From an uncultured Candidatus Saccharibacteria bacterium (GTDB lineage: Bacteria; Patescibacteriota; Minisyncoccia; Phycocordibacterales; UBA2100): a DNA stretch of 64,000 bases. Position 1 is the first letter of the stretch; each line of letters opens with the position of its first letter. Of the stretch, positions 21,465-48,910 are shown piece by piece. The notes below the pieces were generated by a model. It worked only from the letters and a program-made list of their open reading frames with translations. It had not been told where the DNA came from and searched no databases. The DNA is taken from positions 297,372 through 361,371 of the forward strand of contig CAZELA010000001.1 in assembly GCA_964512835.1 (NCBI GenBank). Direction: 5' to 3'. A program made the position numbers and the translations under genes.

Positions 21465-21535
21465 TGTCGAGAGTATACGGATTCGCGCAAAAAAATACAC
21501 CGGAGGCCGCGAGGTCTCCGGTGTGCATCATGGAT

Positions 21536-22732: not shown

Positions 22733-22733
22733 T

Positions 22734-22919: not shown

Positions 22920-22921
22920 AC

Positions 22922-23464: not shown

Positions 23465-23553
23465 AGATTGGTCGATTGGTTACGAACCTTACAATGGGCA
23501 CAGGCGGTGCACGTCCGGAGACCGGTGGAAAACACCAGTGATACAATTCTGGC

Positions 23554-23997: not shown

Positions 23998-24071
23998 TAA
24001 AAACTCGGGCCGTGAATTTTTGTAGACACAAGAACTGCGGATAGGGGTAAATAATAAGAACGGTACATGCT

Positions 24072-24542
24072 ATGGATCTCGTGATCAGGAAAACTCGTAA
24101 TGGGCGCGGAATTTTTGCGGCGCGGGATTTTGACCCCGGAGAAACACTCTACGAAGTCACGGGCGCATTTGTAAGCGGGGACGAAGATGACGATGTTGAT
24201 GAATCGTTCCAATCGAACACATTTCGATATGACGCAGATCGCTATATTTCACCAGCAGGAGAGATTGGTGATTTTCAAAATCATTCCTGCGAGCCGAATG
24301 CCAAAGTCATAAAGCACGACGGTCGTCTGTATGTCGCCGCCGCACAAGCTATTGCACACGGTACGGAAGTGTTGATTGACTACTCGACAATCATTGCAGA
24401 CGACGATAGTTGGACCATGCGCTGTTCGTGCGGCACATCATCGTGTCGGGGCGTCATCGGGCAATTTAACTCGTTACCGAACACCGTACGTATTCGCTAT
24501 ATCACTACCGAAATGGTTCCCGAGTATATTCGCGCTCTTTGA
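24072..24542 (+). CDS. SET domain protein (lysine methyltransferase fold)
   Basis: NHSCEPN SET signature, ELxxDY-like VLIDYS, post-SET cysteine cluster CSCGTSSCRG. Confidence 0.75.
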   Translation: MDLVIRKTRNGRGIFAARDFDPGETLYEVTGAFVSGDEDDDVDESFQSNTFRYDADRYISPAGEIGDFQNHSCEPNAKVIKHDGRLYVAAAQAIAHGTEVLIDYSTIIADDDSWTMRCSCGTSSCRGVIGQFNSLPNTVRIRYITTEMVPEYIRAL

Positions 24543-24600
24543 GCACCCTCGTATCGCCGACGTCTGTTGCGCGAACGCAAACCGCGTGTATAAAAATAGT

Positions 24601-24840
24601 ATGAAAAAAACATTGAGCACAGGAGACGTTGTTGTTATCAGCTTAACCGTTATCTTTTTTGTCGCGGCCTTATTCTTAAAGGGGTTCACAAAGGATCTGT
24701 TACTCGAGATCGGCGTGCTCTTGGTTTCGATAAAGCTGATCATGTTTAATTACAAGCAGACGATGTTTGATACTGATGTCGTGCAGCGTCTCGACGCACT
24801 TCAAAAGGACGTTACTGAATTGAAGGGGCGAACGCGCTAG
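24601..24840 (+). CDS. small membrane protein
   Basis: ATG 24601, two TM helices. Confidence 0.4.
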   Translation: MKKTLSTGDVVVISLTVIFFVAALFLKGFTKDLLLEIGVLLVSIKLIMFNYKQTMFDTDVVQRLDALQKDVTELKGRTR

Positions 24841-24863
24841 GCTACTCGCGCACGCCCGTTCAT

Positions 24864-25187
24864 TTGCTAGAGTGCTGTATGTCTGACACGGCCATGTCCG
24901 GAGGAACTGCGCACAAGATACCCGCCGATTTGAAGAAGAAACTTGCATCCGACAAAGCGGCGCTTTCAAAATGGGAGAGTTTGACACCGCTCGCACGCAA
25001 CGAATGGATCTGTTGGGTTGTTTCGGTCAAGAAAGAGGAAACGCGAACTGAGCATCTGGATCGTGTACCTGTCGAGTTGAAAGAGGGTAAGCGCAGACCG
25101 TGCTGCTGGATCGGATGCATTCATCGTACGGACAAAGACATCAGCCCCTCAATCAAAGGTATTTTGGCAAAGCGTGCCAAGAAATAA
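24864..25187 (+). CDS. YdeI/OmpD-associated C-terminal-domain-like protein
   Basis: LARNEWICWVVSVKKEETRTEHLDRV parallels the C-terminal motif of the YdeI-family gene at 15951. Confidence 0.5.
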   Translation: MLECCMSDTAMSGGTAHKIPADLKKKLASDKAALSKWESLTPLARNEWICWVVSVKKEETRTEHLDRVPVELKEGKRRPCCWIGCIHRTDKDISPSIKGILAKRAKK

Positions 25188-25193
25188 AAAAAT

Positions 25194-25213
25194 CGCCGGC
25201 GCGAACGCCGGCG
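25194..25213 (-). terminator. terminator-like hairpin oriented for a minus-strand transcript
   Basis: CGCCGGCG-cgaa-CGCCGGCG hairpin. A-runs on both sides on plus strand, so U-run follows the hairpin only for a minus-strand transcript. Confidence 0.55.
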
Positions 25214-25229
25214 AAAAAAGTGGTCCAAG

Positions 25230-25560
25230 CTGACCTCCGACAGTCTGTGCCAGACGCGTTGCGTCGCCGACAGAACTTCCGTCTCCCGTGTGGGCGGTAT
25301 TTCAAGGTCGAATCAGACCCAGCCGAAACCGGATCCTCATTTTCTCCCGCCTATCCTACGCACATCAGGACGAGTCTTCAGTCCACCTCCGGAGATTCGA
25401 ACTCCGGGGCTGATCGCGGTTTCCCACTGAACAACAGGCCATTAGGGCTTCGAACCCCTACACCGCACGAGGGATGGCTCCCATCTAGGTGTTTGCCTGG
25501 ACCGCGCGAAGTATAGACGCACTGGCCACACTGTCAAAAAAGATGGACATGATAAAATAA
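25230..25560 (-). other. about 330-nt non-coding structured region with three tRNA T-arm-like motifs (unclassified RNA or tRNA relics)
   Basis: No ORF over 60 aa on the GC-rich segment. Minus-strand reading has GGGGTTCGAAGCCC, CCGGAGTTCGAATCTCCGG and GGGTCTGATTCGACC stem-loops 55 and 87 nt apart. No complete cloverleaf could be built. Confidence 0.3.
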
Positions 25561-25565
25561 ACCCA

Positions 25566-25656
25566 TATGTCAAAAGGAATGGATCGTAAAAAAGAGGCCA
25601 AAAAGCCCAAGAAAGAAAAGCCGAAAAAGGACAAAAGTCGTCCGTACAACAATTAA
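25566..25656 (+). CDS. small lysine-rich peptide (29 aa), speculative
   Basis: MSKGMDRKKEAKKPKKEKPKKDKSRPYNN. Below the 60-aa track cutoff, read from sequence. Confidence 0.3.
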
Positions 25657-25728
25657 TACCGAAGTGTCGACAGAAATACCGCCCCCACAGGGTGGTTTTC
25701 TTTTTTCGGGGCAGGTATACCATGAACA

Positions 25729-26149
25729 CATGGACATCAATTACATCGCAATTTTAGTAGCGACCGTTGTGCAATTTATTATCGGGGCAATTTGGTATAT
25801 GCCGCTCTTCGGAAAACTGTGGGGCAAGATCCACGGCTTCGACCATGAAAGCCCGGAAGTGCAGGCTGAGATGCGTAAGGGTATGTTTCCGCTCCTCGCA
25901 GTTCAATTTCTCGGCACGCTCGTTACGTCCGCAGTGTTCGTGCTGCTGCTCAACGGCATGCCGTACGACTGGAATCGGTACGGATTAGTCGGATTCATGT
26001 GGCTCGGCTTTGTCGTGCCAACGCAAGTCTCAGCGGTGCTATTTGGCGGCACGCAGCCGCAGTGGATCGTAAAAAAGATCCTCGTCATGGCATTCGGTTC
26101 GCTCGCGTGCCTCGAAGCGCTCGCATTCGTGGTCGTAACAATGAGTTAG
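25729..26149 (+). CDS. DUF1761 family membrane protein
   Basis: MDINYIAILVATVVQFIIGAIWY start typical of DUF1761. Confidence 0.6.
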
Positions 26150-34856: not shown

Positions 34857-35747
34857 ATGAACATAGACAAACGTCAGCTTCGGATGACGATTCTGAAGAG
34901 CTGGGGCTTTACGCTCATGGGCTTCTTCAACATCTTTGTCCTGTTGCTGATCGCCTCACTGCTTGCGCTGCGCTTCGGCGGCCCGGTCGCGATCTTCGCG
35001 ATTCTGACCCCCGCACTCGCGATGATGTGCCTCTTCTTTCTCCTCGGAGAAGTGGTGGTGAACCTCATCTTCGATGCGCAGACGCCGCATCCCGAACACG
35101 ACGCACGGTTTCTCGCGTCGATGAAGCGTGTGAAGAAAAAGACCGGCATGTGGGTTATGCCGCGTGCATGGATTATCCCGATGGACCAGCCGAATGCGAT
35201 GGCATACGGGCCCGGAATTCCCGGCATGTGTGCCGTCGGCATTTCAAGGAAGCTCGTCGACATGCTGAATGACGACGAGCTCGACGGCGTTCTCGGACAC
35301 GAATTCGTCCACATTCTGTGCCGCGATACCGGCCTGCTTGCGATCATCAGTCTTGCGCTCGGTCTCATCGACAAACTGCGCGGACTGCTGAGCAACAAGA
35401 ACGCGATGATCACACAGTCTCCGATCACGCTCGTGATCGGCTGGATCATCTACTTCGCCGGCAAGTTGGCGTTTGCCGTGTCGCGGTTCTCGATTTCGCA
35501 GGAACGCGAGATCGCGGCGGACGCGTTGAGTGCGTACTACAACGACGACGCGAAACCCATGATTTCCGCACTGCGGAAACTCAACGTGTGGGTTCTGAGG
35601 AACAGGAAGGAAGACGGCGAGAAGCCGTTCTTCCAGGACCTCATGGTTGCCCATCCCGGAATGGACGAGCGGATCGCTTCACTCGAAGCGCTCATTCATC
35701 ACGAGACGTTACTGATCACTAACCAGGCAGAGGAGGAGCACGCGTGA
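34857..35747 (+). CDS. htpX: M48 family zinc metalloprotease
   Basis: HEFVH zinc motif, NAMAYGPG motif, four TM segments. Confidence 0.8.
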   Translation: MNIDKRQLRMTILKSWGFTLMGFFNIFVLLLIASLLALRFGGPVAIFAILTPALAMMCLFFLLGEVVVNLIFDAQTPHPEHDARFLASMKRVKKKTGMWVMPRAWIIPMDQPNAMAYGPGIPGMCAVGISRKLVDMLNDDELDGVLGHEFVHILCRDTGLLAIISLALGLIDKLRGLLSNKNAMITQSPITLVIGWIIYFAGKLAFAVSRFSISQEREIAADALSAYYNDDAKPMISALRKLNVWVLRNRKEDGEKPFFQDLMVAHPGMDERIASLEALIHHETLLITNQAEEEHA

Positions 35748-37396
35748 ATCAGATACCCAGAAATATCCGCGCAACCGGAAACGGCGGCGGGGGAAAAGCG
35801 GCTGTGCCGGACGAACGTCCGCACGGCACAGGCGGATTCTGGTGGAAGTTCAACGTGATCGTGCTTGCGATCACGTTCGGGTTCTTCTACTGGATCTTTC
35901 CGCACCTCACGCAGAATGTCGTGTTCGACATGATTCTGCGCAACGGCTGGTATTTCATTCCCGGCTTCTTTCTTGCACTTGCGGCGCTCCGGTTCGGAAC
36001 CCGTAACCGCGAAGATCTGATGTCGGGTGAGCTCGGCAAACACCGGCGACCGATTTCGGTGCTGGTTACAGCCGGTACCGCATTTGTGTTGTGGTGCGCG
36101 TTCGTGTGGACCTCGACCGACTACCTGATCTACAAAACGTACGGGTCGTCGTTTACGGCACGCGCCGGGCTCATCCCGTCGTCGCCGGAGTTCACGCGCT
36201 TCACCCCCAAGGCGAACGCCTGCAACGATATCGGTAACTCGATCTCGACCAGCGGCGAACATGTCGACTGCAGCTACGCTGCACCGATGGTGACGTCGAA
36301 AGGGTTCTCGTGGGTCGCGCCGATCGTGCCGCGCGGTCTGTGGAACACGCTGTTCGTGAACAACCCCGGCTTCCTCGTCCTCGACGATTCGGCCGGTTCG
36401 TACGCGAATCCCTCGAAGCGTCTCGTGCGCATCGACGACGAACAGAAAGTCGGACCGGGTATGGAATGGTTCGATAATCTACAGTACAAGCTCGCGCACA
36501 ACGACTTCTTCGCGAACTACGACACGCCGCACTACCTGCCGCTCGATGATTCGAAGCCCGACAAGCTCTCGCTCGTCGTGCCGAAGATCAAGTATTTTCT
36601 CTGGCGCCTGCCCTACTGGGGCGGCGTCGTGATCGTGCACTCCGACGGCAGACTCGAGGATCTCGACGCGGAAAAGGCGGTTGCGGATCCGCGGCTGAAG
36701 GGCAAGTGGATTTATCCGCTCGCGCTCAGCCGGCTCTACATCTCGATCCAGAACTACGGATTGGGATGGGGGCTGCTTACGCCGTTCGTCACGATTCAGG
36801 GCAACCTGGAAATCGAACAGCTCTCGAGCGGTAATCAGTTTCCGTTCCTCACGCAGGGCGCGGATAACAAGCCGTATCTCGTGACTGCGACGCGTGGTCA
36901 GGGAAGTGCTCGCGGACTCTACCGCATGTACTTCACCGATGCGTCTACCGGCGTGACCACGTTCCATCAGTTCGGCCAGCACGAAGTGGTCTACGGTGCG
37001 GGTGCGGCCAAAGCGCGGCTCACCAACATCCAGGGCTATCAGTGGCATCACGAGGGCGAAAAGGGTGGAACGGGAACGATCATCGCGATCGAACCCGTCT
37101 ACGTCGTCCGTCCGAACGATCCCACGCTGTACTGGAAGTTCACGATCACCAACGTGACCTATTCCGGTATTTCGGCGACGGCGGTTGCGAACTCCGCTCA
37201 GCCGGACGACATCAAGGTCTTTCCGCACAGGCAGGACTACGAGTCGTGGCTGAAGGGGAACAATGTTTCTCCGGCATCGGCTACCGCGGTTTCCGCCGCG
37301 GGCGCGTCTGTCCGCGACGAAGTCCTCTCGAAGATTGAAGGCATGACGCGCGAGCTCAACTCGCTCCGCGGTCTCGTGCAATCGCTCCCGAAGTAG
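35744..37396 (+). CDS. large membrane-anchored hypothetical protein (550 aa), translationally coupled to htpX
   Basis: GTG 35744 overlaps the htpX TGA. Three N-terminal TM helices, then about 400-aa domain with no recognised motifs. Confidence 0.5.
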   Translation: MNQIPRNIRATGNGGGGKAAVPDERPHGTGGFWWKFNVIVLAITFGFFYWIFPHLTQNVVFDMILRNGWYFIPGFFLALAALRFGTRNREDLMSGELGKHRRPISVLVTAGTAFVLWCAFVWTSTDYLIYKTYGSSFTARAGLIPSSPEFTRFTPKANACNDIGNSISTSGEHVDCSYAAPMVTSKGFSWVAPIVPRGLWNTLFVNNPGFLVLDDSAGSYANPSKRLVRIDDEQKVGPGMEWFDNLQYKLAHNDFFANYDTPHYLPLDDSKPDKLSLVVPKIKYFLWRLPYWGGVVIVHSDGRLEDLDAEKAVADPRLKGKWIYPLALSRLYISIQNYGLGWGLLTPFVTIQGNLEIEQLSSGNQFPFLTQGADNKPYLVTATRGQGSARGLYRMYFTDASTGVTTFHQFGQHEVVYGAGAAKARLTNIQGYQWHHEGEKGGTGTIIAIEPVYVVRPNDPTLYWKFTITNVTYSGISATAVANSAQPDDIKVFPHRQDYESWLKGNNVSPASATAVSAAGASVRDEVLSKIEGMTRELNSLRGLVQSLPK

Positions 37397-37524
37397 GATC
37401 AGTCCTCAAACAATAGTTCTCAAGAATCGACGCCGCGGCCCCGTGCCGCGGCGTTTTCTTTTTGGTTGACCGGACTGAGTAGTTGGAGCATATTCAAAAT
37501 AGGTTCAACAGGAGGAATTGTTCG

Positions 37525-38478
37525 ATGACAGCCATTCATAAGCACGACCGCTATCGCGGCGCGATGGTCGGATTGCTCGGTGGTGACGAAATCGGGGGTC
37601 CGTACGAGACGTGGGGTGCTGCGGAAATCGCTGCAGACATTGATCGTCGCGGCGGCCTCACCATGTTCGACTATGTGAGTCCGTGGGCAAAGCTGCTTGA
37701 AGGCTCCACGAAGGTGCTGCCGAAGGGGCGCCCGACGGATGATTCCGATCACGCTGCAGCGCTCGGATTGAGCCTCGTCGAGCATCGTCGGGTCGTCCCC
37801 GAAGACATCTATGCTCGGCTTCGTCGGATTACATTCGAGCACGTGAGTCCGCTGTGGAACGGTGTCGCAAAGAATGCCGGCCACACGACACGAACAATGC
37901 TTCGTCCGGCAACGCTTGCAGAATCGCAAGCGCTTACCGTCGAAACATATCCGAGCAACGGTTCGCTCATGCGTGCGGCTGCGCTCTCGCTTTTCTACGG
38001 CTCCTTCGAAGCTGCGGATCACGTAGTCATCGATTCGGTAACGCGCATCACGCACCGGCATGAGGTTGTCGAAGATTGCACCGGCGCGTTTGTCGCGACA
38101 CTGTGCAATCTGCTCGAAGGTCATGATCCCGAATATTCGATCAAATCGCATATCGGATTCTCGCTCTCTGATCATGTGAGCATGCACTGCGATAGGGTCA
38201 CACCGAAAGACCCCGGCACGTGGCCGGCTCGTGGAGCGGCAACGTTCACGCTGCATGTTGCATATTGGTCTTTGATGCACGCAACCAGTTATGCCGACGG
38301 TATCGAAAAGGCGATTCGTGTCGGAGGTGATTCGGAAACCTATGCAGCGGTTGCGGGGGCACTTTTGGGTGCTCGGTTCGGCATTCACGACATCCCTGGT
38401 GCATGGCGCAAAGACATGATGGGTGTCGACGTGATGCTCGGCATTGCCGACGACCTGTACGAGATCGCTCACCGCTGA
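37525..38478 (+). CDS. ADP-ribosylglycohydrolase family protein
   Basis: RYRGAMVGLLGGDEIGGPYE N-terminal motif, NGSLMRAAAL, GGDSETYAAVAGALLGARFG. AGGAGGAA RBS before ATG 37525. Confidence 0.8.
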   Translation: MTAIHKHDRYRGAMVGLLGGDEIGGPYETWGAAEIAADIDRRGGLTMFDYVSPWAKLLEGSTKVLPKGRPTDDSDHAAALGLSLVEHRRVVPEDIYARLRRITFEHVSPLWNGVAKNAGHTTRTMLRPATLAESQALTVETYPSNGSLMRAAALSLFYGSFEAADHVVIDSVTRITHRHEVVEDCTGAFVATLCNLLEGHDPEYSIKSHIGFSLSDHVSMHCDRVTPKDPGTWPARGAATFTLHVAYWSLMHATSYADGIEKAIRVGGDSETYAAVAGALLGARFGIHDIPGAWRKDMMGVDVMLGIADDLYEIAHR

Positions 38479-38493: not shown

Positions 38494-38530
38494 ACGGCCG
38501 CCTTTCGAGGCGGCCGTGCTTTTATATAAT
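38494..38530. terminator. bidirectional terminator between the ADP-ribosylglycohydrolase and NrtR genes
   Basis: ACGGCCGCC-tttcga-GGCGGCCGT hairpin with AAAAAA upstream and TTTTATATAATTT downstream. Confidence 0.75.
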
Positions 38531-39220
38531 TTCAATCTCTTTGACCTTGTCGCTCGCAAACCGATACAGCTGCGCGGGCCGGAAGCGTCCGCCGGTTCGC
38601 TTGCGCGGCAGTTCTTTGAGAATATCGAGCTTCAGGATTTTTTTACGGAAATTGCGCTTATCAAGTTCGTGACCGAGCGTAGCCTCGTACATTTGTTCGA
38701 GCTCCGTCAGCGTGAACTCTTTCGGCATGAGCTTACCGATCAGTGTTGTGTAGGTCATGCGCGAATGTAGGCGAGTGAGTGCTACAGACAGCATGTCGGT
38801 GTGATCGTATGCAAGCGTGACTTTCTTGCCGGCGGGGGCCCACCAGCAATCATCTGTGTCGGACTGTTCCGTGTGCGAGAGCGAGCTCCACGGAACATAC
38901 GCGATGTAGCCCACGGCGACCACGCGCCCGCGCGGATCGCGATCGACTTGGCTGAATGTATAGAGCTGTTCCATGTACACCTTGTCGGGATCGACACATG
39001 CTTTTGCAGAGAGGTGACGGCGCGCGGCGTCTTCTGCGGTTTCTTTCGGATCAATAAGGCCGCCGGGGAATCCCTGTGAGTTTGCGAAGTAGGGTGGTCG
39101 ATTCACGGCAACGAGTCGCATATGAAGCTGACCGTCCTTGACGGTAAACAGCGTGACGTCGGTTGCGAGCACCGCAAAGCGCAGATGCTCCGGAGAGGGA
39201 ACGAATGTTCCGTTGGACAT
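38522..39220 (-). CDS. nrtR: NrtR-family Nudix-related transcriptional regulator
   Basis: Degenerate Nudix domain with EQLYTFSQVDRDPRGRVVAVGYIA signature. C-terminal winged helix EFTLTELEQMYEATLGHELDKRNFRKKIL. Confidence 0.75.
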   Translation of the reverse strand: MSNGTFVPSPEHLRFAVLATDVTLFTVKDGQLHMRLVAVNRPPYFANSQGFPGGLIDPKETAEDAARRHLSAKACVDPDKVYMEQLYTFSQVDRDPRGRVVAVGYIAYVPWSSLSHTEQSDTDDCWWAPAGKKVTLAYDHTDMLSVALTRLHSRMTYTTLIGKLMPKEFTLTELEQMYEATLGHELDKRNFRKKILKLDILKELPRKRTGGRFRPAQLYRFASDKVKEIEII

Positions 39221-39287
39221 AGATACACTGTACAGAACAAATAGTTATTGTCAAATATACACTTATCAACAGGTTATTTAGTGTAGT

Positions 39288-39447
39288 ATTGACACTATGT
39301 GAAACCGGGAATACTGTGCGAAGTAGGAGTAGGACATTTGTTCTCTGACATAGTGCGTACATATATTGACAGTGTCAGTTCAAAATGTGACAGTTTCGCC
39401 GGTTTGCTACTTCGTTAGCACATGGTCTTTGACAGTGTGCTAGTGAA
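39288..39447. promoter_or_regulatory. three direct repeats T(A/T)TTGACA(C/G)T(A/G)TG in the nrtR-operon intergenic region (candidate operators or promoters)
   Basis: tattgacactatgtg 39288, tattgacagtgtcag 39364 (with TGTCA-N10-TGACA inverted repeat), tttgacagtgtgcta 39434. Confidence 0.45.
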
Positions 39448-39465
39448 TCTAAGGTAACTGAAACT
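39437..39465 (+). promoter_or_regulatory. putative sigma-70-type promoter of the 39493-44749 operon
   Basis: TTGACA-N16-TAAGGT, then AGAGGAGAA RBS 8 nt before ATG 39493. Confidence 0.35.
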
Positions 39466-39492
39466 GAGTTCAACCCAGAGGAGAACTACCAG

Positions 39493-40686
39493 ATGACGAC
39501 CGAATCCAATGCCGCACCCGCGGTTGTGCCGCAGGCGTGGATCGACTACATCGGCCCGTTCGTTTCCGTGATCGGCAAGCCGATCGAGGACGTGAATACG
39601 GCGCTCAGCTCCATCGTCGGCGACCCCGGCGACCAGGCGATCGCGCTCCTCAAGGACGCGAACCTGACCCCGGACGCCGCGATCAAGAGTGCGTTCCAGG
39701 GTATGCCGCTCGGCATTCTGAATCTCGCGATCACCAAGCTCCGTGCGGCACCTGTTGCCGCCACGCCGGTTTCGTTCGGCGGGCTCGATATTCTGCCCGA
39801 CGTGCCGACCGAGCAATCGTGGCTCTCGGCGCTCCGCGCAGGCGGGGCACTGAAGGTCAGTCAGGCGACGGTCACCTCTGCGATTCGTGCGACGCTCGCT
39901 CACCGCGCCGGTCTCTACGACCTGCCGGCGATCCTGGTCGAACGCATCGAGAAGTTCGCCGATGACAACGCCGAGCAAGTCGGCACCGACTTCTTCGCGC
40001 TGCGCAAGCAGTTGCGCAAGAAGGAGTACGCCGAAGTGTTCGAGGCGATCGGCATCGACGGTCTCGACGGCAACTACGTCACCGACAAGCGCAAGAATGA
40101 TCTGTTCGTCCGCATCGACGGCGACCTGTGGCCTGCCATCGTGTCCTTCCAGGGCACGCTGAAGGGCTGGGTCGACTCGTGGCAGACGCAGTCCAACAAT
40201 CCCGGACTGATGATGCAGAACATGATGGCGATCATGTCGGGCGGCGTCGGCGCCGTTCCGCAGGCATTCATGATGCAGGCGCCGGATACCGGCGTGCTGC
40301 ACGATGCGGCCGACGGCTTCAACGACGTGATCAACAAGGTCTTCGCCGGCACCCGCATGCCGATCGCCAGTGCGCTCGCGCACGAAGCGACGCAGATCGT
40401 GAAGACGCTCGAGAATCCGGCACTGCCCGGATATATCGGTGCGGCCAATCGCGATCAGATGCTGCGTATGCTCGGCGTCGAAGTTGCGGCAACGTATCCG
40501 CGCATGGAGGTCAATCTGATCAAGTACGTGATGAGCGTGCTCAAGATCAAGGACCTCTCGGCCGGACCGGAAGAGCAGCAGTTCTTCGTCGCGCTCTCGA
40601 TGCTGGGCAATTCGATCCCGTGGGATCAGCTCGGCCTCGGCAAGCGCAATCGTCCCGACACTGAGCGGCGCCCTCGCGCGCTGTAA
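39493..40686 (+). CDS. hypothetical protein (397 aa), first gene of operon
   Basis: Ala/Gly-rich, no recognised motifs. Confidence 0.5.
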   Translation: MTTESNAAPAVVPQAWIDYIGPFVSVIGKPIEDVNTALSSIVGDPGDQAIALLKDANLTPDAAIKSAFQGMPLGILNLAITKLRAAPVAATPVSFGGLDILPDVPTEQSWLSALRAGGALKVSQATVTSAIRATLAHRAGLYDLPAILVERIEKFADDNAEQVGTDFFALRKQLRKKEYAEVFEAIGIDGLDGNYVTDKRKNDLFVRIDGDLWPAIVSFQGTLKGWVDSWQTQSNNPGLMMQNMMAIMSGGVGAVPQAFMMQAPDTGVLHDAADGFNDVINKVFAGTRMPIASALAHEATQIVKTLENPALPGYIGAANRDQMLRMLGVEVAATYPRMEVNLIKYVMSVLKIKDLSAGPEEQQFFVALSMLGNSIPWDQLGLGKRNRPDTERRPRAL

Positions 40687-40755
40687 CAGAACGGACATCA
40701 ATGGGAGGCGGCACCGTTCGGTGCCGCCTCGAATTCTTTGAAAAGGATTGCACCG

Positions 40756-41868
40756 ATGATGGATGCAGATCTTCTGCCCGTCTACGAACGCATCATGCAG
40801 GCCGCACGGCCTGAGGATGTGTTCGAAGAATTGTCGGTCGTGCTTCCGCCGCGTCTCATGGAAAAGCATTTACAACCCGAAATGGATGCGATGCGTACCG
40901 TGCTTGATGCGGACCGCTACTCGTCACTCGATGACAAGGAGGCGGCACGACTCGCCAAGCCGAAGCTCGAAGAGTTCTATCGGATGGCGCTCGAGCGCGC
41001 GGCCAAAGGCCTCTACGCGCCCGAGGACTACACGCCCTACGTTCCGACCGGCAACGGTCGGACGATCATCGTCGACGGCACGACATATACGGTCGGTGAA
41101 AAGTTCCACGTGGGAGAGCATTCCGCTCTCTACAAGGGACGCATGGCGATCGATCAGGGAAGCGCAGGGGTCATCATCCGGATCGCGAATGATCCGGATA
41201 CCAATCCCTACGTTCTCAACGAGATCGGCATGCTCGATCAATTGCATCGTGTCGACGTCGGATACTGGCGTCACATTCCGTTCATGCTCGGCCGCTTTTC
41301 CGCGGGCGATCGTATCGGTCTTGTGACGCGCTACTTCTCCGGGCATACGCTCACCGAGGTGCGCGCAAACAAACTGCATCGCGATGGTCTCGACCAGCGC
41401 CATGTTGTGTGGGTGCTCGACAGAATGCTCGGGCTTATGTGGTACTACCACGAGCTCGGCATCGTCCACGGTCGGATCGAGCCGGAGAGAATCCGTGTTC
41501 GGCCGTACAACCACAATGCGCTCCTTACCGGCTGGGGACACGCGGTCTTCAAGCCGGCGATCACCGGACAGAAGCTTGCTTCTGTCGGCGGAATATTCGA
41601 AGCCCCGGAAATCGGGGATTCGGGTGCCGTCGGTCCCTGGACCGACATCTATAGTCTCGGCAAAACGCTCATCTGGCTCATCGGCGGCGATCCTGCCACC
41701 AATGAAATGCCCGATCGTGTCGAACCGAAACTGCGACAGTTTCTGGCGAACATGGTGTGGAAGAGCCCCAAGGCTCGACCGCACAATGCCCGTCAGCTCT
41801 ACGACGCTCAAAACAGGTTGAAAGACACCCTGTGGGAGCGGCGATTCGTCCACATGCCCATGGCATAA
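40756..41868 (+). CDS. protein-kinase-fold protein with degenerate catalytic motifs (pseudokinase-like)
   Basis: VGEHSALYKG (Gly-loop-like), VIIRIA (VAIK with K to R), NEIGMLDQL (C-helix Glu), HELGIVHGRIEPERIRV (HRD/HGD loop with D to G/R), GWG for DFG, TDIYSLGKTLIWLIGG (subdomain IX). Confidence 0.6.
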   Translation: MMDADLLPVYERIMQAARPEDVFEELSVVLPPRLMEKHLQPEMDAMRTVLDADRYSSLDDKEAARLAKPKLEEFYRMALERAAKGLYAPEDYTPYVPTGNGRTIIVDGTTYTVGEKFHVGEHSALYKGRMAIDQGSAGVIIRIANDPDTNPYVLNEIGMLDQLHRVDVGYWRHIPFMLGRFSAGDRIGLVTRYFSGHTLTEVRANKLHRDGLDQRHVVWVLDRMLGLMWYYHELGIVHGRIEPERIRVRPYNHNALLTGWGHAVFKPAITGQKLASVGGIFEAPEIGDSGAVGPWTDIYSLGKTLIWLIGGDPATNEMPDRVEPKLRQFLANMVWKSPKARPHNARQLYDAQNRLKDTLWERRFVHMPMA

Positions 41869-41882: not shown

Positions 41883-43322
41883 GTGAAGACATCAAGGATC
41901 AGTTCACGCGCCGACGCAGAGGTTGCACTCACCAATGTGCGCTCCAGCGCGGCCGCGTTCTCGCATAGCGAAGCCATGACGCGCTCCGGCGCCGGACGGT
42001 GTCATCCGAACCTCAACCCGAAGGGTGTGGTTCGCGAGTGTCTCGATACGAGGCAGATGCCGTTCGTCACGCCGATCGCGATCGGCATGGATATCACGAA
42101 GTCGCGCGGCAACGATGCGCGAATCGTGTACGAACAGACGATGCCGCTTTTGGGCTCGTTGTTCATGTCGGGCGCCGTCACCGATCCGCAGATTCTGTTT
42201 GCGGGTATCGGCGACGCGACCGTCGACACGGCGCCGCTCCAGGTGGGGCAGTTCGAGTCCGATGACCGCATGGACAAGGATCTCGAGCGTATGTGGCTCG
42301 AGGGCGGCGGCGGCGGAACAGGCCAGGAGTCGTACGAGCTGTTTGCGTATCTGCTCGCTCGCAAGACCAAGATCGACGCGATCGACAAGCGCGGCAAGAA
42401 GGGCTATTGCTTCTTCACCGCCGACGAAGCGCCGTATCCGAGCGTGAAGAAGGCCGAAGTCGAGACCGTCTTCGGTGACAAGCTGAAGAAGGACATCCCG
42501 ACGCCGGATATTTTCGCGGAGTTACAGAAGAAGTTCCGCACCTTCCTGATCTATCCGGGTAAGCCGATGGCGGAACGTCAGGATGACATCGATGCCGAGA
42601 TTCGTCAGCGCTTGCTGAAGGCCGGCGGCCGGTTCGAGAACTGCTCGATCCGGGCGACGCTGATCTGGAACAATTTCAATGACCTGGATCTGCATGTCGT
42701 GACGCCGGATCGCGATCACATCTATTACGGCAATCGCACCTCCAGGTGCGGCGGCGCGCTCGATGTGGATCGCAACGCGACCGGTCGCGAGACCCGCGAG
42801 CCCGTGGAGAATATCCGCTGGCCCAAGGGGACCGCGAAGCCGGGCAAGTATCGTGTCTACGTCCAGAACTTCGCCGAGCACGAACGCAACGGCAAGGATA
42901 CGCCGTTCAAGGTCGAGCTCGATCTCGACGGCACGATCAAGACCTTCGAGGGTGTCATGAAGGCCGGCACCACCAAGGGGCCGAGCGACACGATCGCGTT
43001 CGAGTTCGACTACGTGCCGAAAGGCATGCAGCAGGCGAACGCGCAGGGTCGCGAGGCCTACGCCGACGAGACCATCCTCGGCGAGTGGCGCACGTGCATT
43101 CCGGACGGCCACATCATCCGGCTGACGGATGCGAAGTGGACGACCGAAGCCATGATCGGCGTCATGGGTATCCAGAGCGGAAAGAAGACACTCAGGCAGG
43201 TCCTCGCGGACATGCATGAACGTGCCGTCGATCCGAAGGGTATCAAGGACGTCGAGCTCGCGCTCAAGCCGTTCGCCGCGCAGGCGGTGATCGACGAGGT
43301 CGGCGAAGAAGCATTCACTTGA
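41883..43322 (+). CDS. von Willebrand factor A (MIDAS) domain protein with C-terminal beta-rich domain
   Basis: GTG 41883 after AAGGGAGA. IAIGMDITKS (DxTxS MIDAS), GGGGGTGQESYELFA (Thr motif), YCFFTADEAPY (Asp motif). Confidence 0.55.
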   Translation: MKTSRISSRADAEVALTNVRSSAAAFSHSEAMTRSGAGRCHPNLNPKGVVRECLDTRQMPFVTPIAIGMDITKSRGNDARIVYEQTMPLLGSLFMSGAVTDPQILFAGIGDATVDTAPLQVGQFESDDRMDKDLERMWLEGGGGGTGQESYELFAYLLARKTKIDAIDKRGKKGYCFFTADEAPYPSVKKAEVETVFGDKLKKDIPTPDIFAELQKKFRTFLIYPGKPMAERQDDIDAEIRQRLLKAGGRFENCSIRATLIWNNFNDLDLHVVTPDRDHIYYGNRTSRCGGALDVDRNATGRETREPVENIRWPKGTAKPGKYRVYVQNFAEHERNGKDTPFKVELDLDGTIKTFEGVMKAGTTKGPSDTIAFEFDYVPKGMQQANAQGREAYADETILGEWRTCIPDGHIIRLTDAKWTTEAMIGVMGIQSGKKTLRQVLADMHERAVDPKGIKDVELALKPFAAQAVIDEVGEEAFT

Positions 43323-43405
43323 CACGCAGTCAGTACCATCGCACATTACGGGAGCGCCTTTCGGGGCGCTCCTTTGCTTTTGATCTTTTACACAGGGGAA
43401 TAGCA

Positions 43406-44749
43406 ATGAAAAAACACGCGACAATCGTCGTTGATCTCGGGTTCGGCGATGCGGGCAAAGGCACCATCGTTGATTACGTCGCGCGACGCGGCGGCTACGC
43501 CTCGGTCGTTCGATTCAACGGAGGCGGTCAGGCTGCACACAATGTGGTCCTACCCGACGGCCGACACCATACGTTCCGTCAGTTCGGAAGTGCCACGTTC
43601 GTTCCGGGAATTCGGACGCATCTCTCGCGCTTCATGCTCGTGGATCCGTTCGAACTCATTCACGAAGCGAATCTCCTGGTGGACGCCGGCGTTCGTGATC
43701 CGCTTGCGCGGCACTCGATCGACGAGCATGCGCTCGTCGTTGCTCCTCATAGCAAGAATGCCAATCGCGTGCGCGAAGCCCGTCGTGGAAACGGCAGGCA
43801 CGGCACGTGTGCAATGGGTATCGGCGAGACGATGGACATGTCGATCAAACATCCGGACATGGCCATCCGTGCGCGCGACCTGCTCGATCTGAGCGTAGTC
43901 ACACGCAAGTTGAATCGCATCGCGGAGTATGTTGCGGCCGAGTTCAAGGACGATTCGCTCTACAAGGAGCTGGAGAATACGCCGGCTGCGAGCCGCACGG
44001 GTGCGTGGTTCGCAGATGCGCCGCCGAGCGAGTGGGCAGGAATGCTTCACGAGATCGGAAAACGCATCACGATCGTCGACGACAAACATCTGTGGCGCAT
44101 CGCGCGCAGCGGAAACTTGCTGTTCGAAGGTTCGCAGGGAGTTTTGCTCGACGAATGGCGCGGATTTCATCCGTATACCACGTGGTCGACAACGACTGCA
44201 GAGAATGCTCGAACCTTGCTTCAGGAAGCAGGCTACGAGTATTCAACGGAGACGATCGGCGTCCTGCGCGCGTTTCATACGCGTCATGGCGAAGGTCCGT
44301 TCCCGACGGAAAATGCGACGCTCACGAAACTGCTACCCGATAGTCACAACGACAACATCGGTCCGCAGGGAGTGTTTCGTGTCGGCTGGTTTGATGCGGT
44401 GCTCGCACAGTACGCGCTTGATGTATGCGGCGGCGTTGATTCGCTTGCGATCACACATCTCGATCGCTTCGACGCACTGGCTGATCCGCAGATCTGCCTC
44501 GGATACAAATCTGCAAACGGTGCGTTTGCGCGAATTCCGGTGAATCCGGTCAAGGAAGATCTTGTTGCGCAGGCAGAGATCACGAAGTTGGTCGCGCGTG
44601 CGCAACCGCTGTACCAACCCGCGCGCCTGGTGGGCGATCCCTATGCCAGGATGATCGCAGACATGGTTTCGACACCGGTCTCGATCACATCGTACGGGCC
44701 GACCTCGGCGGACAAGCGAGCCCTCGGGAGGCGCGTTCGCGCAGCGTAA
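43406..44749 (+). CDS. adenylosuccinate synthetase (PurA) family protein, divergent paralog
   Basis: P-loop GDAGKGT (GDEGKGK), NGGGQAAHNV (GGHNAGHT), EGSQGVLLD (EGAQGTLLD), HTRHGEGPFPTE (STRVGAGPFPTE), VGWFD (TGWLD), ITHLDRFD (LTKLDVLD). Several PurA substrate motifs altered. Confidence 0.75.
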   Translation: MKKHATIVVDLGFGDAGKGTIVDYVARRGGYASVVRFNGGGQAAHNVVLPDGRHHTFRQFGSATFVPGIRTHLSRFMLVDPFELIHEANLLVDAGVRDPLARHSIDEHALVVAPHSKNANRVREARRGNGRHGTCAMGIGETMDMSIKHPDMAIRARDLLDLSVVTRKLNRIAEYVAAEFKDDSLYKELENTPAASRTGAWFADAPPSEWAGMLHEIGKRITIVDDKHLWRIARSGNLLFEGSQGVLLDEWRGFHPYTTWSTTTAENARTLLQEAGYEYSTETIGVLRAFHTRHGEGPFPTENATLTKLLPDSHNDNIGPQGVFRVGWFDAVLAQYALDVCGGVDSLAITHLDRFDALADPQICLGYKSANGAFARIPVNPVKEDLVAQAEITKLVARAQPLYQPARLVGDPYARMIADMVSTPVSITSYGPTSADKRALGRRVRAA

Positions 44750-44763
44750 GTTCTTTGAGACTC

Positions 44764-44799
44764 AGCCTTCGGCCCACGCCGAAGGCTGTTCTTTTTTTG
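44764..44799 (+). terminator. rho-independent terminator of the operon
   Basis: CAGCCTTCGG-cccacg-CCGAAGGCTG then TTCTTTTTTT. Confidence 0.8.
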
Positions 44800-44813: not shown

Positions 44814-45164
44814 ATGGCCACACAGCCCGAAACAATGGAATTCATATTAGAAAAACTTGGCGATGCCAAAACATTTACGTCGCGCATGATGTTCGGTGAG
44901 TATGCGCTCTACGCCAACGGCAAACCGGTCGGGTTTGTGTGCGACGACCTCCTGTACGTAAAGATTCTGCCGGAAAGCGCCGCACTAGAGGATGAATGCG
45001 AAAAGGGACACGCGTACCCGGGATCAAAGCTTTATTACATTGTGGAGGAATCGCAGCTCTCCTCGCTCGAAGACTTGCCGCAGCTGTTGATCGACATGGC
45101 AAAATCTATCCCGGCAAAGAAAAAGAAAGCCAAAAAGACTGCGCATACACGTTCGACTAAATAA
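44814..45164 (+). CDS. TfoX N-terminal domain protein
   Basis: MMFGEYALYANGKPVGFVCDDLLYVK pattern of TfoX/Sxy N-domain. Confidence 0.6.
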   Translation: MATQPETMEFILEKLGDAKTFTSRMMFGEYALYANGKPVGFVCDDLLYVKILPESAALEDECEKGHAYPGSKLYYIVEESQLSSLEDLPQLLIDMAKSIPAKKKKAKKTAHTRSTK

Positions 45165-46152: not shown

Positions 46153-47079
46153 ATGCAAAAAATAACACCCGCGCTGTGGTTCGACAAAAACTGCGAAGAA
46201 GCGGTTAATTTTTATACGAGTGCATTTCCGAATTCGTCGATCAAAACGATTAAACGATACCCGGACGGCATGAATGAGGGCCCGATGCAGGGCATGGGCG
46301 GGAAAGTGCTGACCGCGGTCTTTGAGCTCGACGGACTCACGTTCCAGGCGCTCGACGGCGGACCGTATTTCAAGCTGAACCCGGCGATTTCTTTTATGGT
46401 GAACTTCGATCCGTCCCGCAATCCCGATGCTGCGGCTGATCTGGATGTGCTCTGGTCCAAGCTATCCGAAGGTGCGACGGTTCGAATGCCGAAACAGGAA
46501 TACCCGTTCAGTAAGATGTACGGCTGGGTAGAGGACCGATTCGGTGTGAACTGGCAGCTCATTCTTACGAATCCCGACGGAGAACCGCGTCCGAACATCA
46601 TTCCGTCGCTCATGTACACGAAGGATGCGAGCGGAAAAGCCGAAGAGGCGGCGAATTTCTACGTATCGCTGTTCACTAATTCCCGTATGGGTACGGTGGC
46701 GAAATATCCCGATGGAATGCCGGCCGGCGTGCCCGGAGGCGTCATGTTCGAGGATTTCATGCTCGACGGACAGTGGTTTGCCGCGATGGACGCGGGGCAG
46801 GAACATGACTTCCGATTTAATGAAGCTGTATCATTTTCCGTTGAAACTGCAGACCAGGAAGAAACCGATTTCTTTTTCAAGAGCTTGAGTGCCGTACCGG
46901 AAAGTGAGCAGTGTGGCTGGCTCAAGGATAAGTACGGCGTCTCGTGGCAGATTGTGCCGAAGCGAATGGCGGAACTGCTCTCATCGTCGGATCAGGAAAA
47001 GTCGACCAAGGCACTCAGCGCCATGCTGAAGATGAAAAAAATCGACATTGCGGGTCTTGAAGCAGCCTACAATTCCTGA
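46153..47079 (+). CDS. VOC-fold protein, tandem PhnB/YjdN-like (3-demethylubiquinone-9 3-methyltransferase-like) domains
   Basis: Two repeats each beginning ITPxLWFD / IIPSLMYTKDASGKAEEAANFY with GW ... NWQ motifs. Confidence 0.65.
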   Translation: MQKITPALWFDKNCEEAVNFYTSAFPNSSIKTIKRYPDGMNEGPMQGMGGKVLTAVFELDGLTFQALDGGPYFKLNPAISFMVNFDPSRNPDAAADLDVLWSKLSEGATVRMPKQEYPFSKMYGWVEDRFGVNWQLILTNPDGEPRPNIIPSLMYTKDASGKAEEAANFYVSLFTNSRMGTVAKYPDGMPAGVPGGVMFEDFMLDGQWFAAMDAGQEHDFRFNEAVSFSVETADQEETDFFFKSLSAVPESEQCGWLKDKYGVSWQIVPKRMAELLSSSDQEKSTKALSAMLKMKKIDIAGLEAAYNS

Positions 47080-47084: not shown

Positions 47085-47969
47085 TCAGTCGTTGAACGAA
47101 ATCAGATAGGTATCGATCAGGCGCTGATCGAGATCATAGAACGTCTTGCCTTCCGCGTGCAGTCGGGTCGCAAGTTCGACGCCCACATATCGCCAATGCC
47201 ACGGTTCGAAAATAAAGTGACCGTTTCCTTTCGGATACGAGAGTATGAATCCGTATTCGTGCGCGTGTTCCTTGAGCCACGTGAATCCCTGCGTCTTATC
47301 GAATCCGCTGAGTCCGGCTTTCAGCTCAGGCATTGTAAAGTCGAGCGTAGTGCCGAGCTGGTGTTCGGAGTATCCTTGGTCTGCGGAGAATGAATTTGCA
47401 GTACCTGCTCCGTAGGTAACTTTGTACCCTTCTTTAAGTGCCGCCTGTGTATCAAAGGATCGGTAGGCCGAAAGGGCGAGTAGGTGTACGCCGCTCGAGC
47501 TTGCCGCATTGAACAGATCGTTGAGATGTTTCGACGCGGAGGTAAGGAAATATTCCTGCTTATCCGGTCGCGCAAGATACTGCGGGGGTATGGGGGCAAC
47601 CTGTGCCGGTACGTAATTTTCGTTCAAAAAGTACACCGACGAATATTTTGCGAGCAGCTGTCTGTCGGTTTTGCTGAGCTTATCCAGGATGCCCACAGTT
47701 CCCGCGATCGATTCAACCTGGGCTCCGAGCGCAGCTTTTTCCGCTTCGCGTTGCTCGAGCAGGTGCTTGAGGTCGTCGGCAAGTGTGTCGGAATTGATCA
47801 GGTCCTTGGTGAGCTGATCTGATTGCTCGGTAAGTCGGGCAGACAACTCGCGTTCGGCCGTATATGCGATCTCCAGTTTGTTGTATTCATTGACTCCAAA
47901 GACCAATGCGCATGCAAGCACGAGGGAGAGTATCGAAGCGACCGTGGCGGGTGACAGAAGGGTCTTCAT
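47085..47969 (-). CDS. M15B (VanY-like) D-alanyl-D-alanine carboxypeptidase family protein
   Basis: SEHQLGTTLD (SxHxxGxAxD) and EPWHWRY motifs. Start at MKTLLSP signal anchor. Confidence 0.7.
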   Translation of the reverse strand: MKTLLSPATVASILSLVLACALVFGVNEYNKLEIAYTAERELSARLTEQSDQLTKDLINSDTLADDLKHLLEQREAEKAALGAQVESIAGTVGILDKLSKTDRQLLAKYSSVYFLNENYVPAQVAPIPPQYLARPDKQEYFLTSASKHLNDLFNAASSSGVHLLALSAYRSFDTQAALKEGYKVTYGAGTANSFSADQGYSEHQLGTTLDFTMPELKAGLSGFDKTQGFTWLKEHAHEYGFILSYPKGNGHFIFEPWHWRYVGVELATRLHAEGKTFYDLDQRLIDTYLISFND

Positions 47970-48025
47970 CGACGCGATTGTAGCATGCGTCGAAATGCGT
48001 CGGCTTTTGCTATATAGTGACCCGA

Positions 48026-48910
48026 ATGACGACGAATACGACCGAGTGGCAGGTACTCCTGTTCTATAAGTACGTACCCGTAGCAAATCCGCAGGAATGT
48101 GCCGATGCTTTTCGGGTACGGGCGGCCGAGCTCGCGCTCACCGGACGCGCGATTGTGGCAGAGGAAGGATTGAACGCGACCGTCGAGGGCAGTATCGAAG
48201 CTACAGAATCATTTGCCGCGTGGATACTGTCCGATCCGCGGTTCGCCGACATGCAGATTAAGCGCTCGAAGGGTACCGGTGAGAGTTTCCCGCGCCTGTC
48301 AGTAAAGGTTCGTGCAGAGATCGTCGGAACAGGGTTTAGTCGCGACGAAGCCGACCCGTATGTTAAGACCGCGCCGCGCCTGACTCCGGAGGAGTTGAAA
48401 GCGTGGTACGAAGAGGCGCGCGACTTCACGGTGATCGACATGCGTAACAACTACGAATTCGCATCCGGTCACTTTAAGAACGCCGTCCAGCCCGACATCT
48501 CTGCGTCGCGTCATTTGCCGCTTGCGATGGAAAAGCTGAGTCCGCTCAAAGACAGACCGGTCGTTACGGTTTGTACGGGCGGGGTACGCTGCGAAAAAAT
48601 GGCCGCATATCTTTTGAGTCACGGTTTTACCGACGTGCATCAGCTCGACGGCGGGATCCATTCATATATGGAACAGTTTCCGGGAGAGGACTTTGAAGGG
48701 ACGCTCTACACATTCGATAAGCGCCTCACCATGGATTTCGGCGGCGAGCGCTCAGTGATAGGTCGTTGCCGTCTCTGTAATGCGTCAACCGAGCACTACG
48801 TTGATTGTGCTGAAGACACGTGTCACTACCATTTTCTGGCGTGTGCGAATTGCACCGACGAGCGCGGCAGGGCTTTTTGCAGTGATGAATGTCGGATGAC
48901 TCGCGTATGA
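48026..48910 (+). CDS. trhO: rhodanese-domain tRNA uridine(34) hydroxylase (TrhO/YceA family)
   Basis: WQVLLFYKY start, rhodanese active-site loop CTGGVRCEK, Cys-rich C-terminus. Confidence 0.75.
   Translation: MTTNTTEWQVLLFYKYVPVANPQECADAFRVRAAELALTGRAIVAEEGLNATVEGSIEATESFAAWILSDPRFADMQIKRSKGTGESFPRLSVKVRAEIVGTGFSRDEADPYVKTAPRLTPEELKAWYEEARDFTVIDMRNNYEFASGHFKNAVQPDISASRHLPLAMEKLSPLKDRPVVTVCTGGVRCEKMAAYLLSHGFTDVHQLDGGIHSYMEQFPGEDFEGTLYTFDKRLTMDFGGERSVIGRCRLCNASTEHYVDCAEDTCHYHFLACANCTDERGRAFCSDECRMTRV

Follow-up and report, generated by a model that had tools for sequence, protein, structure and literature searches.

Does the PurA-like protein encoded at this locus make adenylosuccinate, as the name adenylosuccinate synthetase (AdSS) that databases give to it would imply, or does it join a purine nucleotide to something other than aspartate? 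The DNA analyzed, hereafter the window, is a stretch of 64,000 nucleotides (64 kb) of contig CAZELA010000001.1 from an uncultured Candidatus Saccharibacteria bacterium, and the protein is a ligase of the AdSS fold with 447 residues. From its motifs, the original prediction had taken it for a PurA-like ligase that adds a different amine or acid to a nucleotide, by analogy to the phage enzyme PurZ, rather than for housekeeping PurA. We give a probability of about 0.5 to the reading that the protein serves as the catalytic subunit in a conserved and so far undescribed module, which comprises a vWA-domain protein, the PurA-like protein, usually a J-domain pseudokinase, and often an NrtR regulator; in this module it would act as a GTP-dependent 6-oxopurine ligase for an amine other than free aspartate, in response to NAD+ or ADP-ribose.

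Fold and active site of the PurA-like protein

The reading frame of the PurA-like gene spans positions 43319 to 44749 on the forward strand, and the ATG at 43406, which agrees with the N-termini of homologs, gives the 447-residue protein. The Pfam family PF00709 covers residues 7 to 434, i.e., the full length, with an E-value of 7.7e-65. An AlphaFold2 (AF2) model built from 50 relatives (predicted local distance difference test [pLDDT] = 90.4, predicted template modeling score = 0.91) superposes in Foldseek on solved AdSS structures with template modeling (TM) scores of 0.77 to 0.82 at 21 to 27% identity, whereas the scores to the PurZ and PurZ0 structures are only 0.54 to 0.60. Because of the E-value and the superposition on AdSS structures, the PurA-like identity is not a chance match. 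The protein reaches neither cut-off of the NCBIfam equivalog models of PurA (183 bits for NF002223, cut-off 402; 156 bits for TIGR00184, cut-off 395.55), and the PurZ model NF038379 gives 34 bits against a cut-off of 300.

All seven motifs quoted in the original prediction are present: GDAGKGT at residues 14 to 20, NGGGQAAHNV at 38 to 47, CAMGIGETM at 135 to 143, EGSQGVLLD at 241 to 249, GEGPFPTE at 295 to 302, VGWFD at 326 to 330, and LDRFD at 352 to 356. The two segments described there as deviating, NGGGQAAHNV and CAMGIGETM, are real and family-wide in an alignment of 163 sequences. The most telling deviation had been overlooked, in that the aspartate loop before VGWFD reads IGPQGVFRVGW, not GATTGRRRRTGW.

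The active-site residues of 50 close relatives, and then of 163 cellular and viral relatives, were aligned to Escherichia coli PurA, whose numbering is used below. The reference sequence is consistent with the alignments to 1cg4 and 1kjx and with the mutant names K16Q, R143L, and R303L. Asp13, Lys16, His41, Gln224, Thr239, Asp333, Ser414, and Gly416 are kept in all or nearly all of the 163 relatives; Asp13, the catalytic base, is Asp in 163/163, His41 is the catalytic acid, and Asp333, Ser414, and Gly416 read the guanine. The full set required for GTP/Mg2+ binding and for phosphorylation of the 6-oxo group of a purine nucleotide is thereby retained. As the original prediction had proposed, the residues that bind aspartate and IMP (inosine 5'-monophosphate) are not fully conserved on alignment, and the aspartate site is replaced in every one of the 163 sequences. 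The aspartate loop TTGRxRR, lost throughout, has become (W/F/Y)QGx(F/L)R and is one residue shorter: Thr300 is replaced by Trp, Phe, or Tyr (Pro in the window copy), Thr301 by an invariant Gln, and Arg305 by Phe or Leu (Phe in the window copy), while Arg303 is deleted. Arg131, which likewise binds aspartate, is Met, Val, or Leu across the family, with the Met of CAMGIGETM in the window copy, and Val273 is replaced by His. Among the ligands of the IMP 5'-phosphate, Asn38 is Gln in 100% of the family (within NGGGQAAHNV, which keeps His41), Thr129 is Cys family-wide (the first residue of CAMGIGETM), Thr239 is kept, and the region surrounding the inter-subunit Arg143 is neither conserved nor alignable.

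In the Helicobacter pylori AdSS, the contacts are formed by Asp12, Asn37, Gly119, Thr121, Thr230, Val264, Arg294, and the inter-subunit Arg135; the equivalents of Asn38, Thr129, Thr239, Arg303, and Arg143 form hydrogen bonds with IMP, and a sulfate, an anion at the aspartate site, is held by Arg294 and Arg296, the equivalents of Arg303 and Arg305 (PMC11571797). Judged from these contacts and from the kept and changed residues, the half of the reaction in which a 6-oxopurine is activated by GTP looks intact in the PurA-like enzyme, while by the same comparison the aspartate pocket is lost and the pocket for the 5'-phosphate and the 2'-OH is altered. Since the aspartate residues are replaced and the residues for GTP binding and 6-oxopurine activation are invariant, an amine other than aspartate is the most economical reading. 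To this extent the proposed change of substrate stands, but the analogy to PurZ is not supported: in PurZ it is the nucleotide that differs (dGMP) and aspartate remains the substrate, whereas here Asp13 is kept and the amino acid site is changed.

Distribution and paralogy

Protein searches returned matches at 45 to 76% identity from metagenome-assembled genomes (MAGs) of Patescibacteria and from Actinomadura and Spirillospora. At the protein level, the window shares 99% identity with contig CAZWFX010000003.1 (MAG GCA_964633425.1). When species-representative genomes were scanned with family-specific peptide patterns, relatives were confirmed in at least 545 genome stretches among the first 600 matches listed, and the taxa among these are Patescibacteria, Actinomycetota, Chloroflexota, Myxococcota, Terriglobales, and Gammaproteobacteria. 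The module is also found on 11 Rhodococcus megaplasmids, i.e., plasmid pDK3 of Rhodococcus sp. DK176 (locus L164) and 10 others including pRHL1 of R. jostii RHA1, all of them linear or large plasmids, in the order kinase-like, vWA, PurA-like, and Nudix; the Nudix gene is located downstream and its Nudix box is degenerate.

The PurA-like gene is a paralog of purA, since one contig of an Anaerolineae MAG (L075) carries both types, a PurA-like gene and a canonical purA (at 1816 to 3342 and 6116 to 7396), 3 kb apart. The canonical protein scores 381 bits to E. coli PurA and has the loop ATTGRPRRCGW; the PurA-like copy scores 123 bits, has the loop AWQRDFRVGW, and is 28.5% identical to the canonical one. 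The remaining members of the PurA-like family score 74 to 138 bits to E. coli PurA. No second purA was found within the 64-kb window.

Conserved gene neighborhood

Co-occurrence was counted in the loci with 2.5 kb or more of sequence ahead of the PurA-like gene (69 cellular and 73 viral). A vWA homolog lies upstream in 68 of the cellular loci and in all 73 viral ones, a kinase-like gene is present in 63/69 and 46/73, respectively, and NrtR in 51/69 and 8/73. The PurA-like and vWA genes are thus inherited together, whether the carrier is a bacterium, a plasmid, or a phage. In Spirillospora, the genes for NrtR, the kinase-like protein, the vWA-like protein, and the PurA-like protein are tightly packed and co-directional. 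Clustering of the neighbors in 160 loci returned only vWA, kinase-like, NrtR, and Nampt genes as recurring ones; when 36 cellular and 81 viral loci were clustered all against all, no purB, glutaminase, phosphatase, or other conserved partner was found.

Partner proteins

The vWA partner comprises a vWA domain with a metal ion-dependent adhesion site (MIDAS) at approximately residues 50 to 230, a DUF2135/TerD-like β-sandwich at approximately residues 250 to 380, and a C-terminal helical domain; the β-sandwich and the helical tail are an addition in the Patescibacteria form. In Foldseek, integrin beta-I and vWA domains (4fx5, SpaC) match the AF2 model (pLDDT = 81) with a probability of 1.0, and the MIDAS residues Asp70/Thr72/Ser74, Gly142 to Gly145, and Asp181, which follow the metal-site pattern DxTxS...T...D, are invariant among the vWA partners. 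The window protein is 46% identical (E = 4e-59) to the product of the gene upstream of the Spirillospora homolog. A second vWA paralog was observed in some loci: downstream of the PurA-like gene in Myxococcus (L033, 9448 to 10350, and L047), and upstream, in tandem, in one MAG of Anaerolineae (L013, 735 to 2814).

The N-terminus of the vWA partner is Met-Gly in 149 of 158 sequences; in four more the same motif follows a GTG or TTG start, and contig ends truncate three. Of the 155 sequences with an available N-terminus, 153 fit the consensus (M)G-[SGYN]-[GS]-x-[WFY]-[SD], and the two exceptions, the near-identical twin of the window (L001) and L003, start with Met-Lys-Thr-Ser. Methionine aminopeptidase removes Met before Gly, so the mature vWA partners would expose a glycine α-amine. 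The residue at vWA position 6 varies with the remodeled loop of the PurA-like protein, in that Trp300/Phe305 occurs with Trp and Phe-or-Tyr300/Leu-or-Ile305 with Phe. The clade of the window, in which the vWA protein is without Met-Gly, also has Pro at position 300 of the PurA-like protein. In the mycobacteriophage LRRHood, the annotated GTG start of the vWA homolog gp254 lies 12 codons upstream of a Met-Gly and may be wrong.

The kinase-fold partner has an N-terminal J-domain in most lineages, and roughly 90 of the 112 sequences in the alignment retain the HPD motif of this domain; the individual Pfam DnaJ matches are weak. NCBI names many of these relatives "molecular chaperone DnaJ" and others "Ser/Thr kinase." The Asp of the HRD motif is Ala in 80 of 96 relatives, while the Lys of VAIK and the Glu of helix αC are kept. 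In the window copy, the HRD Asp, the VAIK Lys, and the DFG Asp are Arg, Arg, and Gly, respectively; the sequence reads HGR/GW and LDAD, and the J-domain is degenerate with HPD lost. From these motifs, the kinase-fold partner is predicted to be a pseudokinase or an atypical enzyme. The Nudix box REx2EE (REL-EETG) is intact in 55 of 65 NrtR relatives, whereas the window NrtR reads RRHLSAKAC; because of this degenerate box, the window NrtR is probably a sensor only.

Phage homologs and a possible link to NAD+

A tblastn search of a phage collection gave 242 records, of which approximately 202 are Bxz1-type (cluster C1) Mycobacterium phages. Their PurA-like proteins are 40% identical over 98% of the query, and the gene is present in every cluster C1 mycobacteriophage examined. 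In LRRHood, gp253 ("serine/threonine kinase"), gp254 (vWA homolog, phrog_2971), gp255 (88 residues), and gp256 ("PurA-like adenylosuccinate synthetase") follow the gene order of the cellular module. RefSeq and PHROG (phrog_1211) label the mycobacteriophage proteins of NC_054718.1, NC_023714.1, and NC_011269.2 as "2-aminooxy adenylosuccinate synthetase." This label is probably wrong, since these sequences keep Asp13 and are without the PurZ hallmarks.

In IMG/VR, at least 158 viral contigs, many of them 100 to 500 kb long, carry members of the PurA-like family, and four of these (L102, L095, L119, and L090) are 200 to 512 kb. The jumbo-phage contigs L095, L102 (2496 to 9540), and L119 have the order NrtR, Nampt (NadV), vWA, PurA-like, kinase-like, and NMNAT, and the NrtR copies in these phages keep an intact Nudix box. 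Nampt also adjoins the module in L087/88, L090, L156, and L157. In the Saccharibacteria loci L005 and L006, Nampt lies beside the module, next to an ADP-ribosylglycohydrolase (ARG) gene and nrtR. The fixed partnership with the vWA protein and the J-domain pseudokinase, together with the wiring to NrtR, Nampt, and NMNAT, suggests a role in the NAD+-centered arms race between phages and bacteria.

Organization of the locus in the window

The features of the cluster are summarized in Table 1. Homologs of its first gene occur only in L001, L003 to L005, and L027, and this gene is an accessory of a Patescibacteria subgroup. The ARG gene adjoins the module in L005, L006, L008, and weakly L031, and was counted in 3 of the 69 cellular loci; its link to the module is loose, and ARG is not the core of the module.

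Table 1. Positions of the PurA-like gene, its neighbors, and the regulatory features in the window
Feature	Position	Strand	Evidence
ADP-ribosylglycohydrolase (ARG/DraG-like), convergent with nrtR	37525 to 38478	+	PF03747, E = 1.5e-40
NrtR-type regulator (Nudix and winged helix), divergent	38522 to 39220	-	PF21906, E = 1e-24; NUDIX (PF00293), E = 1.6e-8
Divergent intergenic region between nrtR and the cluster, 272 bp	39221 to 39492		
Two operator-like palindromes, AGTGT-N7-ACACT	39247 to 39296		sole two matches in 64 kb
First cluster gene, 397 residues, without recognizable domain	39493 to 40686	+	no match in Pfam, NCBIfam, or PHROG
Kinase-fold partner, 369 residues, predicted pseudokinase	40759 to 41868	+	Pfam Pkinase, 30.4 bits, just below cut-off; phrog_3043
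vWA-domain partner, 479 residues, GTG start	41883 to 43322	+	phrog_2971; AF2/Foldseek
PurA-like (AdSS-fold) ligase, 447 residues	43406 to 44749	+	PF00709; residue table; AF2 model
Terminator-like hairpin closing the PurA-like gene, 11-bp stem followed by TTCTTTTTTT	44763 to 44788	+	

The count of the palindromes alone is not significant (2 seen in 64 kb against 1.06 expected). L005 (TTAGTGTCAATTTGACACTAA), L006, and L007 have the same palindrome in their orthologous intergenic regions, and the position and conservation of these NrtR-box-like sequences are suggestive of operators. Terminator-like sites follow almost every gene of the region (17 against 7.6 expected); they are GC-rich hairpins of 10 to 11 bp with a 4-nucleotide loop and a T-rich tail, at 37429 to 37455, 38494 to 38517, 40705 to 40730, and 43350 to 43373 as well as after the PurA-like gene. 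The hairpin at 38494 to 38517, between ARG and nrtR, is bidirectional.

Downstream of the PurA-like gene, the genes between 44814 and 48086 are ordinary: a TfoX_N-domain protein (44814 to 45164), a protein with a duplicated 3-demethylubiquinone-9 3-methyltransferase-like (glyoxalase-fold) domain (46153 to 47079), and a VanY-type D-Ala-D-Ala carboxypeptidase (47085 to 48086). An open reading frame of 550 residues (35744 to 37396) has no match in Pfam, NCBIfam, or PHROGs. At positions 12000 to 26000, directly after the sole tRNA gene (tRNA-Gln, 11852 to 11923), the GC content is 0.48 to 0.53, compared with 0.55 to 0.60 elsewhere in the window, and this stretch may be an integrated element.

Proposed function and alternatives

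In the mechanism that we propose, the PurA-like enzyme would use GTP to activate IMP or a closely similar 6-oxopurine nucleotide, and the activated nucleotide would then be transferred to an amine other than free aspartate. The enzyme and the vWA protein would act as a complex, in which the MIDAS of the latter would recruit or present the partner. In cells, the operon would be induced via NrtR by ADP-ribose or a related nucleotide, so that the module would answer NAD+ cleavage or ADP-ribosylation; large phages carry the same module, in some cases within a Nampt-NMNAT operon for NAD+ salvage. The favored amine donor in most members would be the free α-amine of the glycine found invariably at the N-terminus of the vWA partner. 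Taken to its most specific form, the enzyme would be a protein-directed "purinylating" ligase that uses GTP and IMP to join the purine C6 to the N-terminal glycine α-amine of the vWA protein or of a delivered client. The product would be an N6-protein-linked AMP, the output of an ADP-ribose/NAD+-responsive conflict module in bacteria, megaplasmids, C1 mycobacteriophages, and jumbo phages; this form is speculative, and we consider it rather improbable.

The system in the window is a derived variant whose donor may differ from that of the family, because the N-terminal glycine, Trp300 (Pro here), and the HPD of the J-domain have been lost and the 397-residue gene has been gained. The traits of this variant further include the degenerate kinase and the adjacent ARG gene.

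Several observations weigh against the proposed module and its mechanism. Other residues, or the partner protein, could in principle reconstitute the aspartate site. The window vWA protein has a GTG start without the Met-Gly of the family, and the N-terminal-glycine idea is inapplicable here. Shared ancestry, not contact, may be the whole reason why position 300 correlates with the N-terminus of the vWA protein. The association with NAD genes is limited to approximately 10 of approximately 160 loci. NrtR was not found in the Chloroflexota and Myxococcota loci, and the flanks there and in Gammaproteobacteria are unrelated housekeeping genes (e.g., Rho, polyprenyl synthase, PPDK, and a DEAD helicase), on which grounds a defense-island context was rejected. 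PADLOC, which holds no model for the PurA-like or the vWA protein, gave no match for either, and the kinase-like protein scored 39 bits to the MADS6 kinase model (cut-off 460); a known defense system was rejected as well. Within the putative operon of the window, hairpins lie 3' of the 397-residue gene and 3' of the vWA gene, so co-transcription of the cluster is not assured.

Among the alternatives, the nucleophile could be ammonia or another small amine, in which case IMP would be converted directly to AMP, rebuilding the adenylate and NAD+ pools after NAD+ or ATP depletion, and the vWA and J-domain proteins would be regulatory only. The retained catalytic core is compatible with such a reaction, the hydrophobic residues in place of the cationic aspartate binders would suit a small neutral nucleophile, and the place of the module under NrtR and, in jumbo-phage operons, flanked by Nampt and NMNAT would fit the purpose. 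On the other hand, no glutaminase or ammonia-delivering partner was found among the clustered neighbors, the strict coupling to the vWA gene and the invariant N-terminal glycine are left unexplained, and canonical PurA and PurB already do this job in every host. We regard direct amination as doubtful. A non-catalytic role, as a GTP- or nucleotide-sensing pseudoenzyme subunit of a vWA/J-domain chaperone-like complex, is unlikely: the partners are indeed protein-interaction modules (vWA, J-domain, and pseudokinase) rather than enzymes, and the MoxR-vWA adaptor systems are a precedent, but across 163 sequences with identities of approximately 30 to 100% there is no variation in the catalytic base, the catalytic acid, or Gln224, which is unexpected for a mere binding module.

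That the gene is simply the housekeeping AdSS of a fast-evolving patescibacterium, converting IMP, aspartate, and GTP to adenylosuccinate, is very unlikely. The complete AdSS fold with its catalytic residues, the database name, and the lack of another purA in the 64-kb window agree with it. However, the signature recurs in Actinomycetota, Chloroflexota, Myxococcota, and phages, and is therefore not drift within one lineage; the coexisting canonical PurA on the Anaerolineae contig, the location on megaplasmids, the coupling to the vWA gene, the loss from the aspartate loop of its two threonines and of the two arginines that bind the carboxylate, and the 183 bits against the 402-bit equivalog cut-off all speak against it. 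The original prediction had also set the protein apart from housekeeping PurA, and residue loss, paralogy, and context bear this out. A PurZ-type enzyme making the precursor of 2-aminoadenine (Z) for DNA is effectively refuted, despite the phage-borne PurA paralogs and their grouping under the PurZ-like name in PHROG and RefSeq, by Asp13 in place of the PurZ Ser in 163/163 relatives, the NF038379 and TM scores given above, the loss of the aspartate site that PurZ retains, the mostly cellular carriers, and the lack of a conserved datZ-, mazZ-, or dpoZ-like neighbor in the clustering of 160 loci.

Comparison with known systems

The proposed catalytic subunit with its vWA partner, acting on an amine other than free aspartate, shares elements with several described systems. 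Similar to the NrtR regulons (Rodionov et al. 2008, PMC2330246), the cluster lies adjacent to an NrtR-type regulator with a Nudix domain and a winged helix-turn-helix (wHTH), and the promoter region has palindromes that may be operators. As for the phage NAD+ salvage pathway formed by Nampt and NMNAT ("NARP2"), the module lies in one locus with Nampt (NadV), NMNAT, and ARG in some phage contigs and Saccharibacteria; unlike these salvage systems, most module loci are without NAD biosynthesis genes. No PurA-like, vWA, or kinase-like gene appears in the published NrtR regulons (PMC2330246) or in the NARP1/2/3 papers. Also similar are the ARG-centered, Nudix/WYL-regulated systems with vWA "chaperones," for which a role against viral ADP-ribosylation was predicted (Iyer et al. 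2022, PMC9503650). As in these, the window has genes for ARG, a vWA protein, and a Nudix-wHTH regulator side by side, and the predicted inducer is ADP-ribose. The systems of Iyer et al. have neither a PurA-like enzyme nor a J-domain pseudokinase; in turn, ARG is found in only a few of the module loci, and no coupled phosphatase was seen here. No description of the module was found in full-text searches or in the papers on NrtR, on NAD-ADP-ribose and viruses, on PurZ, and on NARP1/2/3, and the module around the PurA-like enzyme may represent a system of a new kind. In the field of the NAD+ arms race, a PurA-like component has not been reported so far.

Pairs of an NTPase and a vWA adaptor are known from MoxR-vWA systems (CbbQ/CbbO, NorQ/NorD, and RavA/ViaA) and from the Mg-chelatase ChlI/ChlD. 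By analogy to these, the vWA protein with its intact MIDAS is encoded beside a P-loop, nucleotide-using protein with which it presumably forms a complex, and a role of the vWA domain as an adaptor to a protein target is plausible. In place of the AAA+ ATPase of these pairs, the module has a SIMIBI-class ligase with the AdSS fold as its NTPase.

PurZ and PurZ0 (6FM1, 7ODX, and 7VF6) resemble the family as phage-carried PurA paralogs with a substrate changed relative to PurA. PurZ has approximately 340 to 365 residues, takes dGMP as the nucleotide, keeps aspartate, has Ser at the position of Asp13 (in 100% of 147 phage sequences; PMC12884076), and occurs with datZ/mazZ/dpoZ or dutZ/dmtZ. In contrast, the PurA-like family has Asp13, an altered amino acid site, and approximately 440 residues, and occurs with the vWA protein and the J-domain pseudokinase; neither datZ/mazZ/dpoZ nor dutZ/dmtZ was among the recurring neighbors of the 160 clustered loci, a clustering without a hidden Markov model search aimed at those genes. 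In the study of the 147 PurZ sequences, 481 phage PF00709 proteins were found, only 151 of which were assigned to PurZ, and the remainder were not discussed (PMC12884076). The names "adenylosuccinate synthetase" and "2-aminooxy adenylosuccinate synthetase" could mislead metabolic reconstructions of Patescibacteria and surveys of Z-genomes.

The closest relative in structure is AdSS/PurA itself (EC 6.3.4.4; E. coli 1CG0, H. pylori 6ZXQ), with which the family shares the fold, the P-loop, Asp13/His41, Gln224, Thr239, Asp333, and Ser414. Because the fold, the P-loop, and the catalytic and guanine-specifying residues are the same, the PurA-like enzyme most likely uses the first half-reaction of PurA, the GTP-dependent 6-phosphorylation of a 6-oxopurine nucleotide. 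It differs from PurA in being a paralog of 21 to 27% identity with an obligate vWA neighbor and a remodeled aspartate loop. The clade is large, with hundreds of bacterial species from at least six phyla, the Rhodococcus megaplasmids, and many phage contigs of 100 to 500 kb. To our knowledge, enzymes of the PurA fold carry out exactly two reactions, that of PurA with IMP and aspartate and that of PurZ with dGMP and aspartate; a third clade, which keeps the activation chemistry and is without the aspartate site, would represent a new enzymatic activity on purine nucleotides.

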